This document shows positions 11,375-59,636 of a stretch of 61,211 bases of DNA, piece by piece. This DNA comes from an uncultured Candidatus Bathyarchaeia archaeon (lineage in GTDB: Archaea > Thermoproteota > Bathyarchaeia > Bathyarchaeales > DTEX01), in the NCBI GenBank assembly GCA_964600125.1, contig CAZRIK010000001.1, positions 5,412 through 66,622 of the forward strand, given 5' to 3'. The notes beneath the pieces are model-generated. The model saw nothing but the letters and a program-made list of their open reading frames with translations. It was not told where the DNA came from and ran no database searches. A program made the position numbers and the translations under genes. The stretch's first letter is position 1; the number at the start of each line of letters is the position of its first letter.

Positions 11375-12382
11375 GTGAAAGGATTCATCGTGGATGATAC
11401 TGGAGAGGTAAAATTTTTACAAGGATTACGTGATTTTTGTGCTGGTCAATGGATAATATACGAAAATCCTGAGCCAAGTAGTTTTTGTAGTGAACAAGAT
11501 CTAAACAATTGGTCTATTGTTCAAGCCCATCGGAATGGGGAAGGGTTTGAGGCTTTTGTCCAGTTTTGTCGCACATCCACAAGAGAGTTCCACGAATCTG
11601 TAAATCGTTTGAAGATGGTACAGACAAAATCAATACTAATGCAATTTATTGATAGTAAGTTTTCGATTGGTATAAAGACAATTGATACTGAGGCAATGAA
11701 AAAATCAATAAGAAAAAAAGATGAAGACTCAGAACTGATAAGAAACATAAAGATATCTGTTCAAGCACAGATACATGATACAGGTACCTCATATGGATTT
11801 TTTCCAAATTTACGTATGACATATGATATGTTACTAGCCATTGGTTTGATAAAAATATCAAATAAAATACAAAGAGGGACAGGAGAATTAGTATCCTATT
11901 TCCCCTGTCTTCCTATTTCACTTTTTCGTAAATTATTTCATTTATATGAGGATAAGATACCAAAAGAAAGATTAAACAACTTTGGAATTTTTGTTGAGTT
12001 TTCAGGGTACTCATATCTGTTCTTTAAAGATAGAGATTACCCTCCAATAAAAGTTAGAGGCGGTAGAAAATCAAATCATAATTTATTAAAAATATTAAAA
12101 GAAAAGAAAGTGAGATATTTATTCCAACCTTGTGATCATGTTGTTGCAGTTGATTTTGATATTTATGAGGCCAGTGTTTTAGATGAGTTGATTCAAAGAA
12201 GAGATAATTTATCAAAATCAAAAAGAAAATCTCACAGACTGCATAAAGATGCTCAAACATTCCCTCACCCAGAAAACCCCACCCAAACAATTACTGCCAA
12301 TGAATATGCGAAACTAAAAGGTATCTCAAGACCTACTGCATATGCTAGGTTGAGAAAATCACAGGAGTCCAACACCTCATGA
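11375..12382 (+). CDS. Putative DNA-binding protein with C-terminal HTH (paralogue of 55925-56875)
   Basis: 335-aa ORF (an in-frame GTG at 11390 has the better RBS, AAAGGA). The C-terminus TITANEYAKLKGISRPTAYARLRK is HTH-like. Confidence 0.65.
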   Translation: MKGFIVDDTGEVKFLQGLRDFCAGQWIIYENPEPSSFCSEQDLNNWSIVQAHRNGEGFEAFVQFCRTSTREFHESVNRLKMVQTKSILMQFIDSKFSIGIKTIDTEAMKKSIRKKDEDSELIRNIKISVQAQIHDTGTSYGFFPNLRMTYDMLLAIGLIKISNKIQRGTGELVSYFPCLPISLFRKLFHLYEDKIPKERLNNFGIFVEFSGYSYLFFKDRDYPPIKVRGGRKSNHNLLKILKEKKVRYLFQPCDHVVAVDFDIYEASVLDELIQRRDNLSKSKRKSHRLHKDAQTFPHPENPTQTITANEYAKLKGISRPTAYARLRKSQESNTS

Positions 12383-55151: not shown

Positions 55152-55478
55152 TTACTTTGGGTAAGCTTGGATAGTACGATAAATCGCAATACCAGCCTTC
55201 AAACATTCCGATGCAAATCCCATCCACTCACCACCGATGGAAGGTAGCTTCGCAAGGATATGGTCTTTGATCGTTTCCAGCTCAACAGCATCAATGTCAG
55301 ACAGCTCGGTAGGGATTTGGTCGATTCCTTCGATTGCAGGCATCAGGACAGTGAACAGGGGAAATAGGTTAGGCACGTCAACCGAGTCAATCTTACCGTC
55401 CTTCAGGGAAGCTACAACAGCGCCTGAGAGGGCAAGTCCAAGGTCAATTACTTCAAGGGTCTCTTTAATCGTAGCCAT
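55152..55478 (-). CDS. Hypothetical protein (108 aa), first gene of the long minus-strand operon
   Basis: ATG at 55478 with an AGAGGTGA RBS. The track ORF extends to 55544. Confidence 0.6.
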   Translation of the reverse strand: MATIKETLEVIDLGLALSGAVVASLKDGKIDSVDVPNLFPLFTVLMPAIEGIDQIPTELSDIDAVELETIKDHILAKLPSIGGEWMGFASECLKAGIAIYRTIQAYPK

Positions 55479-55657
55479 GGCGTCACCTCTAAGAAAAAAT
55501 AATGGCGGGTATTGGCTGGCCTTATTGCTTACTTCCTTCGCCATTGGCTAGAACAGGTCGGTATGTGACGAAATGGTTGCGGAGAGTAAGAATAAGGTCA
55601 GTGTACCCATGGATATGGTTGCATAGATGGATGGGTAGTTCAAGGGTGTGGAGGAGA

Positions 55658-55694
55658 GAGACAGGGGAAATATGGGTGATTTACTTTCCTGTTT
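55658..55694. promoter_or_regulatory. Conserved intergenic element, copy 2 (GAGACAGGGGAAATATGGGTGATTTACTTTCCTGTTT)
   Basis: Matches 11122-11157 with a few substitutions and a 1-nt indel. Confidence 0.6.
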
Positions 55695-55765
55695 TTTGGG
55701 GACAGGAGGAATGACACCCATCCCTTGCGAGGATGTGCCCAGATTTCAGATGACCTTTGAAAAAT

Positions 55766-55871
55766 GCCCAGGAGCAGATGACCGAGTCTCTTATAGTATT
55801 ATATTTATTAAGATTATTTGACTTTAAGAATAGAATCATTTAGATAAAGAGTCGGTCATCTGCTGCTGGGC
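55766..55871. repeat. 23-bp inverted repeat (21/23 match) flanking a 60-bp AT-rich core
   Basis: Arms are GCCCAGGAGCAGATGACCGAGTC (55766-55788) and GAGTCGGTCATCTGCTGCTGGGC (55849-55871). Extra GATGACC copies lie at 55749-55755 and 55890-55896. Confidence 0.85.
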
Positions 55872-55924
55872 ATGGGGCTCAGAACAAATGATGACCGAAA
55901 AATCACCACAGACTGGAGAGTACC

Positions 55925-56875
55925 ATGGGTTTTATGTCTGAGCAAGAAGTCAAAGAAGAAATTTCTAAAGCTGCGAAACAGGGAGATAACCATTATTCCT
56001 CCTGTCTTAAAAATCCTAACTCCCCTCTAGTGAAACCTACATTGAAAAACACTAGAGAAGAGGTGATGTTTTACTCGGCTAAAAATTCAGTAAAGAATAA
56101 AAATGCTAAGAGCTTGAAATACTCCATAAATAAAGTGAGAGAACTTGAAACAGGGAAGTTAGAGGATGATGTTTATTCTCCTGTTTCCCTAGATCAAATT
56201 GAAATTCTCCGACTTGTGACTGTCAGTGGGACAGACAGATCAATCCTTTACAATTCACTACGTGCAGCTTGTGATCGTTGGTATGAATCAGAAGATTGTA
56301 AAATGGGATTGTTGCCGCCTTTGGAAGAGATGGTTCCAATTTTAAGTTCAATGGGTGTGATTGAAGTGACCGAAAATTGTCTCATCTTTCCGAATATTTA
56401 TCTTGAAACTTTTCGTAGAGCTACTAGAATTTCTAGAAAGAAAATTCCCACTAAACTTTTGTGTGATTATGGTATCCAGATCGCAAGAGTAAGAGATAAG
56501 AAGATTTATGTTTCGGCTGAGAAACAGGGGAATAAGAGGGTAAATGTTCGTATTGTTATGGACAATGTTACGGAAGCAGATGAGTTAGTCCACGAGCATA
56601 ATCTCTCTGCTCCTCAAGAAAAAATGATAATAGACGTTGAAGAAGTGTACCAGTGGGTTGGTTTTGATGCGAATCAATATGGTGCGAAACGCCTAGAGGA
56701 TTTTGAGAATTTTATTATGGGTTGGGCAACAAAAACTAAAAAAAGTAGAGAGAGTAATCCAAATTTGAAACAATACCTCGATCCCCACACCGGTAAAATC
56801 ACCACCACAAAAGAATACGCTGAGACATACAACGTAGATAGAAAGACCGCCTACCGTCATCTCAACAAAAAATAA
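55925..56875 (+). CDS. Putative DNA-binding protein with C-terminal HTH (paralogue of 11375-12382)
   Basis: 316-aa ORF with a GGAGAG RBS. The C-terminus ITTTKEYAETYNVDRKTAYRHLNKK parallels the C-terminus of the 11375 gene. Confidence 0.65.
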   Translation: MGFMSEQEVKEEISKAAKQGDNHYSSCLKNPNSPLVKPTLKNTREEVMFYSAKNSVKNKNAKSLKYSINKVRELETGKLEDDVYSPVSLDQIEILRLVTVSGTDRSILYNSLRAACDRWYESEDCKMGLLPPLEEMVPILSSMGVIEVTENCLIFPNIYLETFRRATRISRKKIPTKLLCDYGIQIARVRDKKIYVSAEKQGNKRVNVRIVMDNVTEADELVHEHNLSAPQEKMIIDVEEVYQWVGFDANQYGAKRLEDFENFIMGWATKTKKSRESNPNLKQYLDPHTGKITTTKEYAETYNVDRKTAYRHLNKK

Positions 56876-56880
56876 GCGAT

Positions 56881-56907
56881 GCCTAAGAATATTTTCGGTT
56901 CTTAGGC
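56881..56907. terminator. Perfect 9-bp hairpin, possible bidirectional terminator
   Basis: GCCTAAGAA-tattttcgg-TTCTTAGGC, 5 nt after the stop of 55925-56875. A T-run follows only on the minus strand (ATCGCTTATTTTTTG). Confidence 0.5.
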
Positions 56908-56924
56908 ATCTAGCCCCTAGGGCG

Positions 56925-57120
56925 GGACTGCACAGACCATACACTATCTCAACAAACAACCCAAGTCAAAATAATTTCTCAGGACCAGGCTCTAAAGAAC
57001 CTGGCTTGAAACCTGAGAAATCTTAATACTATCTAAAAGATTACTATCTTTCAAAGTATTGTTAAGGCTGTTTTGCCAGCCTTTTTTCGCTATATTTCTA
57101 GCGGCGTTCAGGTCACGATC
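56925..57120 (-). ncRNA. Candidate TnpB guide (omega/reRNA) region; boundaries approximate
   Basis: In characterised TnpB systems the guide RNA overlaps the 3' end of tnpB and the right end. Here there is a nested hairpin, TTTCTCAGG...[CCAGG-ttctttagag-CCTGG]...CCTGAGAAA (56975-57020). No RNA evidence. Confidence 0.35.
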
Positions 57121-58235
57121 TAACGTGAAGCCACAAGAAATACAGTCAAAAACTCTATTAGAAAGCTTAAGACCTTCCTTAATCAACTCGCAATTACTGC
57201 ATGTTTTAGAGGTATAAGCTTCATTAATTTCTTCAAAATACCTACCAGCACTTTCAGCCAAGTATGATATTTTACACTTGAGATTTCCGATTGCGATGTC
57301 GGAGGCACATCTTGCCAATCTTCCTGATATCAACCATTTGGGAGACACATTCCCGACAAAAATATATTCGCTTGTCTTGACTATTTTCGTGGCGAGCTTC
57401 CAGTTATAGTCTTGCCTTCTCCTTGCTATTTTCCGATGAACGAAAGGCAATGCTTTCCTGTCTTTGTTGGAGGCATTCTTCAATGACAGCAAGTTTTTGT
57501 CGTCTAGAAACTTCTTCCGCTCAGGCTGAACGACAAAAGACCCTTCGATGTTTGAAGCATTTATCGTATGTTTCAAGCCAAGATCTATTCCTAGAATCTT
57601 ATTTGTAGCTGCGGGATAGGATACTTTTTTGATGTTGTTTGTTATGATACAAGCCCAGTAGTCTCCGCATGTGTCGCATTTTATCGAAACTTGTTTGATC
57701 GTTCCTTCGATTGTTCTAGAATCGCCGGTTCCTCTTACCTTCCCAATTCCAGGGATATTGAGAGAGATCTTGTTGCCAAATTGCTTGACCGGCTGGTTTG
57801 TTTTATGCGCAGAATAAGAGAAACTACTTCCTTTTATCTTCTCCGTTTTAAATCTTGGCCTTCCAAGTCTTTTCCCTTTCTTATCCCAAAACTTATATCT
57901 TTCCGCAGCCTTGTGGGCTCTAGCGCACATGTTTTGAGAAATCCAGGCTGGCAAGCTGCTTGTTTTATAAAGCATGTTTATGGAAAACTCTGGAACTAGA
58001 GTGTCCTGCGAAAGCAAGATTTCAAGAGATGTGTTGAAAATATCTATACTTTCAAATATGTAGTTATCAACTTGCTGTTTTTGATTTTTGTTCAAGTTGA
58101 GCTTTACTTTGAAAGACTGCATTAACATCTCCTTTCCTCTAGGTTATATGCCTTTTCTTCTTGTTTCAAGACCTATCGAATTCTGAGAGAAAATTCATCC
58201 TGGAGCTAAAGCACCAGGTCTTCTTTTCTAAGATA
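56940..58235 (-). mobile_element. IS200/IS605-family, tnpB-only element (ends approximate)
   Basis: tnpB is flanked on the same strand by similar subterminal hairpins, CCTGG-tgctttagct-CCAGG (58199-58218) and CCAGG-ttctttagag-CCTGG (56985-57004). No tnpA. Inserted between the terminators of two convergent genes. Confidence 0.6.
56992..58128 (-). CDS. tnpB: TnpB (IS605 OrfB-type RNA-guided nuclease)
   Basis: RuvC I ILGIDLGLKH, RuvC II EEINEAYTSKTCSNC, zinc finger CSNC...(15)...CISCG, RuvC III LDRDLNAARNIAKKG. 378 aa. Confidence 0.9.
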   Translation of the reverse strand: MLMQSFKVKLNLNKNQKQQVDNYIFESIDIFNTSLEILLSQDTLVPEFSINMLYKTSSLPAWISQNMCARAHKAAERYKFWDKKGKRLGRPRFKTEKIKGSSFSYSAHKTNQPVKQFGNKISLNIPGIGKVRGTGDSRTIEGTIKQVSIKCDTCGDYWACIITNNIKKVSYPAATNKILGIDLGLKHTINASNIEGSFVVQPERKKFLDDKNLLSLKNASNKDRKALPFVHRKIARRRQDYNWKLATKIVKTSEYIFVGNVSPKWLISGRLARCASDIAIGNLKCKISYLAESAGRYFEEINEAYTSKTCSNCELIKEGLKLSNRVFDCISCGFTLDRDLNAARNIAKKGWQNSLNNTLKDSNLLDSIKISQVSSQVL

Positions 58236-58238
58236 GGA

Positions 58239-58273
58239 TAAAAACCCCGCAAAAGAACCATTCTCTTGCAGGG
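58239..58273 (-). terminator. Rho-independent terminator after gene 58297-58557
   Basis: Minus strand reads CCCTGCAA-gagaatggttct-TTGCGGGG followed by TTTTTAT. Confidence 0.65.
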
Positions 58274-58296
58274 CATATGCGTGAACCAACATGAAC

Positions 58297-58557
58297 CTAC
58301 TTATTAGCATCTTCACCCAACTTACGCAAGGCTTTCACATCCTCATCCAAAGTTTCACGTAAATGCTTCTCATTCTCCTGTTGTTCATTTGCTGCACGAA
58401 TAGCCTCAATTGCTGCCTCTAACTGCATGGCTTCATCCGTATGTTTCCTTGCAAGCTCCAACTCCTCCGCAGCAAGCTTCTTTGCACGGTAGTAGCCAAT
58501 GATGGTGTTTATAAGCGAGAGTAATGGCCCCAGAAACTTTAACAACAAACTAATCAT
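58297..58557 (-). CDS. Membrane-anchored coiled-coil protein (86 aa)
   Basis: N-terminal TM helix ISLLLKFLGPLLSLINTIIGYY followed by a charged helix. A lysis or superinfection role is possible but unproven. Confidence 0.6.
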   Translation of the reverse strand: MISLLLKFLGPLLSLINTIIGYYRAKKLAAEELELARKHTDEAMQLEAAIEAIRAANEQQENEKHLRETLDEDVKALRKLGEDANK

Positions 58558-58584
58558 ACCGTATTTCTCCTGTTTTAAAAATAA

Positions 58585-59412
58585 CTACTTACACCTAAAT
58601 GAAGATGCTTCCTTCGACCAAGCATAACCGCAATTGTCGATTGTTGTAGCTGTGGTGGCGTCAAAAGGCCAACGCCAATCTTTACCGTTCCACACTGGCT
58701 TGGGTAGTAGATCTTCCCGTGAGTAGGTACGAAACACAAGGGTGGAGTTTCTTTCTCCTGTTTCGTCAACTATCCTTACTCTCATCTCACAATCTCTTGC
58801 AGGAAATTCTTTTGAAACAGGAGAATTAGAGGTTACCTGTTCCACTGAGTCCGTCTCGCAGCCAATAAACCGTACCACAGCGGGGACAGATTTGGGTGCC
58901 ACAGTCAATGTGATGTTGGCTTTGACTGGAAAGGTGCAAGCTCCCACACCTGTTCCAGCACTGAACTTGGAGTCCCCTAGCTTCGTGGTGTTCCCTTGGC
59001 AGGAGTAACTCAGCTCGTCGGCTCCAATCGGATTGGGTGTGACAGGGAGATAATAAATATCCGCTATCTGTTTGCCCGTTTGAGCGCTGGCAAGGCTCAC
59101 TACATTCGGCAGGTAGGGTTTCTCCCCTACTGGAAGGCCCACAGTCACCTTGCCATTCTTTTGAACGCTCTCTCTCCACCATAACATCCCCTTTTGCTCA
59201 GGTGTGCCGTCGAAGTCATAGACCTCGAAGATTTGGTTTATGTTTTGGGCAATGTATTTACCACGAACAGGAGGAGTAAGTAACGTAACTTCCCTGCTTC
59301 TGGTGGGCTCTGCACAGACAAAAAGTCCCTCAGAGGTGTATGAGCGTGGTAGTTTAAGCGGGCCAATTAACTGAGTGGCACCACAGACAACTGTGATCAA
59401 TAGTGGATTCAT
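58585..59412 (-). CDS. Putative secreted protein (275 aa)
   Basis: Signal-peptide-like N-terminus MNPLLITVVCGATQLIG. The rest is beta-rich. Confidence 0.6.
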   Translation of the reverse strand: MNPLLITVVCGATQLIGPLKLPRSYTSEGLFVCAEPTRSREVTLLTPPVRGKYIAQNINQIFEVYDFDGTPEQKGMLWWRESVQKNGKVTVGLPVGEKPYLPNVVSLASAQTGKQIADIYYLPVTPNPIGADELSYSCQGNTTKLGDSKFSAGTGVGACTFPVKANITLTVAPKSVPAVVRFIGCETDSVEQVTSNSPVSKEFPARDCEMRVRIVDETGERNSTLVFRTYSREDLLPKPVWNGKDWRWPFDATTATTIDNCGYAWSKEASSFRCK

Positions 59413-59636
59413 AGGTCTTCTCCTGTGAGGTTGTTCTCATTGAGTGTGCGATAGAACAATCTACGAACTGCTTCCCAACTGACTGACTTCTCATCACTGT
59501 ACTTACACTTACTGCGTAGAAATTCAGACATGTCCCAGAGAGTACGTCTGTATTTGTCTGCCTTGGTGAAGGTTTCGTAGGCTTCTTGGTCGTCTTCACC
59601 TGGGCCTATTTTGAACTCAAAGATTGCTTTGGTCAC
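59409..59636 (-). CDS. Hypothetical protein (75 aa)
   Basis: The stop overlaps the next gene's start (ATGA-type). Confidence 0.55.
   Translation of the reverse strand: MTKAIFEFKIGPGEDDQEAYETFTKADKYRRTLWDMSEFLRSKCKYSDEKSVSWEAVRRLFYRTLNENNLTGEDL

Follow-up and report, generated by a model that had tools for sequence, protein, structure and literature searches.

A probable tnpB-only IS200/IS605 element with an alternative RuvC-II glutamate in a novel phage genome

The DNA analysed here is a stretch of 61,211 nucleotides (contig CAZRIK010000001.1, positions 5,412 to 66,622), referred to below as the window. It belongs to a very novel phage with genes for a portal protein, large terminase, DNA polymerase, helicase, ThyX, primase and endolysin, and no integrase was found among the window open reading frames (ORFs) scanned. 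Between 56965 and 58237 on the minus strand lies an element of about 1,273 bp, whose cargo consists only of tnpB and a predicted omega RNA. We consider, with a probability of roughly 0.85, that this is a non-autonomous, tnpB-only insertion of the IS200/IS605 family, with a TnpB of the alternative-glutamate type, a four-helix omega RNA and a guide derived from the flank. To set the anatomy, the element was compared with 12 relatives and with some 50 distinct left ends on viral contigs; individual loci are given as numbers preceded by L. The features of the element and of its immediate borders are as follows.

58244-58274, minus strand: intrinsic terminator of the upstream phage gene 58297-58557, a 14-pair stem followed by TTTTATCCTA (terminator scan); outside the element
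58238-58242, minus strand: TTTAT, the transposon-adjacent motif (TAM) and left cleavage motif, directly 5' of the left end and 19 nt from the foot of its hairpin
58188-58237, minus strand: left end (LE), with AGAA (58226-58229), loop AAGAAGA, the hairpin, loop ATGAATT (58192-58198) and TTCT (58188-58191)
58199-58218, minus strand: LE hairpin, CCTGG-N10-CCAGG, 5 bp plus 2 bp, loop TTTA
58143-58170, minus strand: putative sigma-70-type tnpB promoter, low confidence (-35 TCTTGAA, -10 TATAAC)
56992-58122, minus strand: tnpB coding sequence, 376 amino acids (an in-frame upstream ATG at 58128 would yield 378)
56965-57092, minus strand: predicted omega (re)RNA scaffold of about 125 nt, comprising an A-tract, helices H1-H4 and a tail to TTGAC
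57066-57081, minus strand: helix H1 of the scaffold
57025-57060, minus strand: helix H2 of the scaffold
57012-57021 / 56974-56983, minus strand: helix H3, the outer stem of 10 bp, which encloses H4
56985-57004, minus strand: right end (RE) subterminal hairpin, CCAGG-N10-CCTGG, of the same shape as the LE hairpin, with the tnpB stop codon TAG (56992-56994) in its loop; also helix H4, innermost in H3
56965-56969, minus strand: RE terminal motif TTGA(C), the element ending after TTGA or TTGAC (+/-1 nt)
56949-56965, minus strand: predicted guide (C)TTGGGTTGTTTGTTGA, about 16 nt of phage DNA beyond the RE, placed from the RE boundary and the known TnpB mechanism
56878-56910, no strand assigned: perfect 12-bp hairpin between the convergent gene 55925-56875 and the element, with a T-run following on the minus strand; outside the element

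The initial annotation of this DNA had taken the ORF at 56992-58128 on the minus strand for a TnpB, and this was borne out by Pfam matches (Cas12f1-like_TNB, PF07282, 3e-20; OrfB_IS605, PF01385, at its cut-off), by a PDB match to ISDra2 TnpB (3e-20, with an identity of about 20%) and by an AlphaFold2 model. The N-terminal HTH_OrfB_IS605 domain gave no Pfam match in the window TnpB. The model, made with 73 homologues, has a predicted local distance difference test (pLDDT) score of 91.8 and a predicted template modelling (pTM) score of 0.83, and it superposes over its whole length on the ISDra2 and ISFba1 TnpBs with template modelling (TM) scores of 0.71-0.81 (0.73-0.81 for ISDra2 TnpB, 8h1j/8exa). 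An AGGAG directly abuts the first ATG (58128), and an AGGAG lies 6 nt upstream of the second (58122); because of the spacing at 58122, and because homologues start with MQTFK, the gene is probably 56992-58122. Residue numbers below nevertheless follow the 378-residue ORF. The putative promoter aligns with a conserved TCTTGAC...TAnnnT in L089, L092, L094, L088 and L003, and a strict consensus promoter scan did not report the site at 58143-58170.

The same annotation had described the protein as a canonical nuclease with a RuvC D/E/D triad and a CxxC...CxxC finger. Much of this stands, since RuvC-I D182 aligns with ISDra2 D191, RuvC-III D339 aligns with ISDra2 D361 and the zinc finger (C310/C313/C329/C332) is complete. 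The word canonical has to be given up: the RuvC-II glutamate expected about 50 residues before the zinc finger is missing, and ISDra2 E278 aligns instead with Gly259/Asn260 in the motif VGNVS. An alternative is provided by Glu303, which precedes the first CxxC by six residues, does not vary among 16 clade members and aligns with Glu467 of the mimivirus Fanzor2 (9b0l; NEayTsKTCSNC / NEylTtKTCSNC). In the Fanzor2 structure obtained by cryo-electron microscopy, Glu467 is a shifted catalytic glutamate, within a triad D324/E467/D501 (PMC11832414). The arrangement in the window protein is E303-x6-C310xxC313-x15-C329xxC332-x6-D339, which satisfies the expression D{P}G...Ex6CxxCx15CxxCx6D; the Ex6CxxC signature was defined by Yoon et al. 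2023 (PMC10711439). Inspection of the 73 aligned homologues reveals a clean division: all 15 with at least 35% identity possess the glycine together with Glu303, and all 58 of the more distant ones possess the canonical glutamate, with Pro, Arg or Ser at position 303.

Several branches with a rearranged RuvC-II, some of them virus-specific, have been reported, and in the largest of them Gly stands in place of Glu (Altae-Tran et al. 2023, PMC10691335), and such branches also occur outside IS607 (PMC10691335). By its alignments the window TnpB is of this RuvC-II-rearranged type ('Ealt', RIIr), with a putative triad Asp182/Glu303/Asp339. An inactivating change in the triad had been named as grounds for abandoning the initial annotation; the alignment gives no such ground, the loss of the canonical glutamate being, by analogy, the kind of change that is regarded as compensated. 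A nuclease-dead repressor of the TldR type is excluded by the presence of D182, E303, D339 and the zinc finger and by the full length of the protein. Membership of the pro-Fanzor / Fanzor lineage was also considered. RuvC-I reads IDLG, and the presence of DLG rather than DPG indicates that the window TnpB is not a pro-Fanzor; the alternative glutamate alone is common to both.

Matched hairpins had been noted on the minus strand at 58218-58199 and 57004-56985. They read as described, and the pattern CCWGGNNCTTTAGNNCCWGG occurs twice in the 61 kb, at precisely these LE and RE hairpins, with 0.09 occurrences expected. The LE has the same shape in the window, L002, L091, L093 and L094, namely AGA, a 5-bp stem, one mismatch, a 2-bp stem, a TTYA loop and then (A/T)(G/T)GAATT, and these five loci have five different stems in which 25 of 25 cells are paired. 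An exact scan of IMG/VR with AGAC-N6-CTTYAG-N6-G-RK-GAATT returned 101 loci. The stem positions left unconstrained by this expression all pair in 86 of 102 IMG/VR matches, compared with an expectation of about 2%, and the 49 distinct cores contain 19 different LE stems. In these cores an outer helix around the two conserved loops is 88% paired, as against 37% in a slid control. Since the LE lies upstream of the tnpB promoter region, this covariation points to a structure in DNA, of the kind recognised by Y1 transposases, and a role of the LE at the DNA level is likely.

The outer limit of the LE follows from the family as a whole. In IMG/VR subfamilies with many sites, similarity breaks off immediately after TTCAT or TTTAT. 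NTYAT (TTYAT/TCAT) precedes the hairpin by 14-21 nt, mostly 17-18, in 49 of 52 distinct viral contexts, and L002, L091, L093 and L005 have the same motif ahead of the LE. From this family boundary and the TTTAT at 58238-58242, we place the start of the LE at 58237. The alternative of a limit roughly 10 nt ahead of the hairpin, following TCTTA / CCTCA, was rejected because the multi-copy IMG/VR subfamilies place it after TTYAT.

Some further observations concern this type of end. Position 3 of the TAM varies in concert with two LE positions (58222 and 58197 in the window) across the 52 IMG/VR contexts: in 31 of them TTCAT is accompanied by G both at -4 and at +2, counted from the hairpin foot, and in 14 TTTAT is accompanied by A and T at those positions; there are 4 exceptions, and the window clade conforms. 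A DNA-DNA recognition of the cleavage site like that of IS608 may lie behind this, or only the shared ancestry of two subfamilies. The same LE architecture borders IscB genes that read towards the LE (L185, L221 and many loci of sample 3300045988) and also canonical TnpBs (L202, L271, L273). It is therefore a widespread IS200/IS605 end type, and in viral contigs a single kind of Y1-transposase end seems to be used for three sorts of cargo: IscB, canonical TnpB and alternative-glutamate TnpB. A jumbo-phage contig of 354 kb (IMGVR_UViG_3300028735_000003) holds at least nine copies of this LE type, among them L193, L206, L214, L215, L217, L236, L246 and L265, in the form (T/A)TCAT, the boundary, GAAAACCTCGCAAGGAGA-hairpin-AGGAATT and then a short ORF, which looks like a burst of a short derivative element inside one phage genome.

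At the right side all relatives present (A/T)CAA(G/T), a hairpin of the same shape and TAGTTGA or TAGTTTA, at which point similarity ends and the next base varies. In the window, L091 and L093 an extra outer stem surrounds the RE hairpin and is followed by TTGAC. Its arms are ATTTCTCAGG / CCTGAGAAAT in the window, GAAATTACC / GGTAATTTC in L091 and AATCTTCC / GGAAGTTT in L093; the sequences differ and all of them pair, L091 and L093 being apparently the same insertion in related phages and thus not independent. Comparison of the outer stem and of TTGAC sets the right end at 56965/56966. An end directly after the hairpin (CCTGA) was discarded, because the 3' arm of the covarying outer stem lies farther out. 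These limits replace the boundaries of 56925-58235 originally given: 56925-56964 is flank, including the guide, and the left end is at 58237. The outer stem itself, reported as 9 bp, is real and covarying and has 10 bp (56974-56983 / 57012-57021), and the TAG stop codon does sit in the loop of the right hairpin (56992-56994), as had been observed.

An omega-RNA scaffold had been suspected around the right hairpin, and both folding and comparison support this prediction. The scaffold starts in an A-tract about 100 nt before the tnpB stop codon, and its 128 nt in the window fold with a minimum free energy of -49.6 kcal/mol, compared with -24.2 +/- 3.3 for shuffled sequences (z = -7.6). Over 11 loci, all four helices show compensatory changes. 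With unedited MAFFT alignments, RNAalifold reported compensatory changes in 10 of 23 pairs for group B (three sequences) and in 12 of 16 pairs for group A (eight sequences). In a register made by hand, pairing reaches 96-100% in each helix, and the arms of each come in 5-10 different sequences, although this register was chosen and leans towards structure. The protein tail encoded across the region is not conserved. From these comparisons 56965-57092 fits a predicted omega/reRNA scaffold. On the plus strand, 57064-57083, inside tnpB, is a terminator-like hairpin with a T-run, the reverse complement of H1 and the A-tract, which could stop transcription entering from the convergent gene.

The guide had been expected just beyond the right end, within 56908-56970, and its predicted position, about 56949-56965, falls in that interval. 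By analogy with known systems, the predicted target would be TTTAT followed by (C)TTGGGTTGTTTGTTGA. No second match to the predicted guide was found in the window or in IMG/VR. Two partial similarities, one of the guide region with 57634-57649 (14/16) and one between 56859-56872 and 56946-56959 (a 13/14 repeat), were set aside as being at chance level in an A/T-rich region.

The insertion point lies directly 3' of TTTAT and within the T-tract of the phage terminator at 58244-58274, the T-tail of which provides the TAM of the element. No phage gene is disrupted, and the initial placement of the element between a terminator and a downstream hairpin agrees with the structures at 58244-58274 and 56878-56910, the latter being a possible terminator for both directions. 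No direct repeats flanking the element were found in the window, so that, as read from the flanks, there is no target-site duplication. The GC content of the element is 39%, compared with 42 +/- 2.3% for the phage. The unoccupied allele is predicted to consist of the terminator GCGGGGTTTTTAT followed directly by TTGGGTTGTTTGTTGAG.

All the relatives in the protein database are metagenomic: 14 clusters at 47-59% identity and three at 35-37%. Their contigs are phage-like, with DNA polymerase A, a UvsX-like recombinase, an SMC-like ATPase, an exonuclease and a tape-measure-like protein, and a further member with 34% identity, which keeps the alternative glutamate, resides on a 40-kb IMG/VR contig. 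TnpB homologues were present in 385 of 50,697 phage records, none above 34% identity. The clade alignment, run against metagenome and genome contigs, retrieved distant TnpBs only (<=37%), because its back-translated patterns were generic. The occurrence of relatives in different phage contexts, next to a UvsX-like recombinase, a DNA polymerase or a tape-measure-like protein, argues for mobility. Together with the family-level boundaries, these differing contexts suggest an insertion rather than an ancestral region.

Individual relatives depart from this pattern. L089, L090 and L092 keep the promoter and the right end, lack the LE hairpin and, judged from these sequences, are probably immobilised copies. 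L003 (5940-6000 and 7120-7145; the same in L004) has a 53%-identical tnpB between two DNA-polymerase-related genes; the LE hairpin is absent and the gene is flanked by an 11-nt direct repeat, TGAGATACACT, the upstream copy of which is preceded by TTCTA(T) and is identical to nt 1-11 of the predicted guide. An IS200/IS605 insertion should not duplicate its target. The putative empty junction of L003 was not found by an exact search.

Transposase profiles were built from 20 Y1 and 6 serine TnpAs that lie beside other TnpBs in the fetched loci. One relative, L087, whose TnpB is 55% identical, contains the N-terminal 71 residues of a Y1 transposase with the HUH motif DHIHFL (E = 3.5e-20; MFHSGSHCKFLLCYHVIFVTKFRRK...). 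In L087 1-240, tnpA and tnpB are divergent and their start codons are about 13 nt apart, so that each promoter would have to be inside the other gene or past it. The ends of the window element are subterminal imperfect palindromes, LE and RE, on the same strand, and there are no terminal inverted repeats. The original suggestion that these are palindromes of the Y1 TnpA type is supported by their covariation across relatives and by the Y1 tnpA in L087. This partner, the hairpin ends and the 5' TAM place the clade in IS200/IS605, not IS607.

Several results weigh against our reading of the locus as a non-autonomous IS200/IS605 insertion, or limit it. No Y1 tnpA was detected in six frames of the window (best E 0.3), as the initial annotation had stated, and the window copy is therefore non-autonomous. 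Among 185,579 bacterial and archaeal species, with one genome each, nothing exceeded about 37% identity. The loss of the LE hairpin in L003, L089 and L092 implies that copies of this clade can be immobile. The predicted omega RNA matched no Rfam family, nor did any other part of the element, and the right boundary is uncertain by one base. Megablast of 55500-59500 against the 50,697 phage records revealed no related phage; with both neighbour genes, neither tblastn against the same records nor a search of IMG/VR produced a related phage or an empty site, and the guide plus flank was not found by an exact search of IMG/VR. The insertion is thus deduced from family-level boundaries and not seen directly.

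Given these reservations, how would such an element behave? Sequence comparison establishes what the protein is, where the ends and the TAM lie, that the RNA structure is conserved and that a relative has a Y1 partner; for expression, cleavage, homing and the source of TnpA we infer only from analogous systems. TnpB with its omega RNA cuts the unoccupied site (Karvelis 2021; Meers 2023, as summarised in PMC13565253). By analogy with ISDra2 and Geobacillus TnpB, the window protein with its omega RNA would cut any DNA bearing TTTAT and the guide, the guide being the 3' extension of the omega RNA into phage DNA (about 56949-56965). The site cut would be the unoccupied one, either after excision or in a co-infecting relative that does not carry the element, and recombinational repair from an occupied copy would then restore or spread the element. 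Insertion at a new site would require a Y1 (HUH) TnpA in trans, recognising the structured LE and RE as single-stranded DNA.

It is conceivable, though we regard it as doubtful, that transposition plays a minor part and that the clade persists chiefly through homing that does without TnpA and passes the element from one co-infecting phage to another ('non-restorative homing'), or serves to attack competitors. TnpB would then cut an allele without the element in a relative, into which the element would be copied along with markers beside it, as for the free-standing homing endonucleases of T4-type phages. A role in phage-phage competition or homing is plausible by analogy and already discussed in the literature (PMC13565253); that 2026 review treats 'non-restorative homing' as theoretical for phages and gives a plasmid precedent for TnpA-independent spread. 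The finding of the clade only in phage-like contigs, almost always without tnpA, and the proximity of relatives to replication and recombination genes, including a UvsX-like recombinase, fit such behaviour. On the other hand, the phage-record and IMG/VR searches disclosed no occupied/empty allele pair, the literature searched gave no experiment showing homing by a phage-borne TnpB, and the LE, conserved and covarying, is not needed by TnpB, which implies that TnpA-dependent transposition still shapes these elements. We hold only tentatively that the clade might owe most of its spread to an RNA-guided gene drive among virulent phages that co-infect a cell: TTTAT plus guide in the empty allele would be cut, the element would copy itself in by means of the recombination machinery of the phage, and TnpA would rarely be needed. 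If so, it would do with a guide RNA what the T4 seg/mob homing endonucleases do, and might bring about marker exclusion between phages.

Two other explanations carry less weight. The element could be a fixed, immobile relic or a domesticated gene, serving a phage function or decaying, with hairpins that act mainly as transcription insulators or terminators. Such a history would account for the absence of tnpA from the window, for the relatives L003, L089 and L092 without an LE hairpin, for the finding that L003/L004 and L089/L090 are each a single copy at one locus recovered from different samples, and for a GC content close to that of the phage. We judge it improbable, because both window ends are intact and match the family consensus down to the TAM and the outer helix, the putative catalytic triad and zinc finger are intact, the omega-RNA helices are under compensatory selection and the LE hairpin, which is not followed by a T-run, would be a poor terminator. 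An IS607-type element mobilised by a serine recombinase is brought to mind by the alternative RuvC-II glutamate, which marks out the IS607 / pro-Fanzor lineage: Glu303 precedes the zinc finger by six residues, a spacing also seen in Fanzors and in the IS607 ancestors of these (PMC10711439), and the C-terminal half of the protein scores 55.8 bits against Fanzor2 and 50.9 bits against ISDra2 TnpB. This is extremely unlikely, since RuvC-I is DLG and not DPG, the partner in L087 is a Y1 HUH transposase, and the ends (CCTATC... and ...TTGAC) consist of subterminal hairpins with a 5' TTYAT motif and do not have GG termini. Further, a serine recombinase was found neither in six frames of the window (best E 0.075) nor in the relatives, and rearranged RuvC-II branches outside IS607, some of them virus-specific, have already been described (PMC10691335). 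A non-autonomous IS200/IS605 insertion remains our preferred reading.

The DNA beside the element has features of its own. The adjoining ORF 55925-56875 (plus strand, 316 amino acids) is the sole plus-strand gene in a minus-strand block that extends over 23.5-61 kb. A search of 5.8 billion proteins returned only the ORF itself; within the window it is weakly similar (E 4e-5) to ORF 11375-12382 (plus strand), and both end in a helix-turn-helix-like T..EYA....R.TAY..L.K. A 26-nt inverted repeat (55764-55789 / 55848-55873, 92% complementary, with a 58-nt spacer) occupies the divergent intergenic region between 55152-55544 (minus strand) and 55925-56875 and could be a regulatory site or an origin-like structure; Rfam matches to plant microRNAs at 55764-55873 are spurious, due to this long inverted repeat. 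A 21-nt repeat, TATT(C/T)CTCCTGT(C/T)TTAAAAAT, is present at 55994-56014 and 58562-58582 with 19 of 21 positions identical. Read on the minus strand, it is the ribosome-binding region (ATTTTTAAAACAGGAGAAATA) before an 86-amino-acid gene and before a 45-amino-acid ORF that overlaps the start of the 316-amino-acid ORF.

TnpB-only phage elements and TnpBs with a rearranged RuvC-II are each of a kind already described, and the finding is otherwise an ordinary one. What it contributes is a small variant group, encountered to date only in phage-like metagenome contigs, in which the system can be parsed in full: a compact TnpB of 376 residues, a TTTAT TAM, an omega RNA of about 125 nt and a defined guide, all predicted from sequence. 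The system lends itself to a direct test as a nuclease, and its pairing of an alternative RuvC-II glutamate with Y1-type ends adds a data point to the view that the 'rearranged' active site extends beyond the IS607 / Fanzor lineage. Since the clade has been seen only in phage-like contigs so far, it also offers a convenient test bed for homing by TnpB alone between co-infecting phages.

Comparison with known systems places the element closest to ISDra2 / IS608-type and Geobacillus IS605-family elements. It shares with them the TnpB fold, and with ISDra2 a 5' pentanucleotide TAM beside the LE (TTTAT here, TTGAT in ISDra2). Also as in ISDra2-type elements, there are subterminal hairpins at both ends on one strand, an omega RNA, predicted in the window, that overlaps the 3' end of tnpB and the RE and has a flank-derived guide, and a Y1 TnpA partner, seen for the window clade in L087. 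The window copy differs in having no tnpA, in an identity of only about 20%, in its phage replicon as host, in a RuvC-II glutamate shifted to the strand before the zinc finger and in the absence of an HTH_OrfB_IS605 Pfam match. The glycine at the canonical glutamate position and the alternative glutamate six residues before CxxC are shared with the RIIr TnpBs and Fanzor2. Some RIIr branches are reported to be virus-specific (PMC10691335). Unlike the pro-Fanzors, which have DPG, it has DLG, and unlike the Fanzor and IS607 relatives it has Y1-type IS200/IS605 ends and a bacterial-virus context. Cultured phages also carry TnpB-only elements, in which a free-standing tnpB ('transposase') without tnpA lies in the phage genome, as in Staphylococcus phage Twort, Microcystis phage LMM01, Lactococcus phage 949 and Nodularia and Thermus phages; these TnpBs are all below 34% identity and, as far as the search shows, none belongs to the alternative-glutamate clade. 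Finally, like seg and mob of T4-like phages, the window element is a nuclease gene between conserved phage genes that is expected to cut the allele without it. This analogy is functional only: recognition here would be RNA-guided with a TAM, and transposon ends are present.

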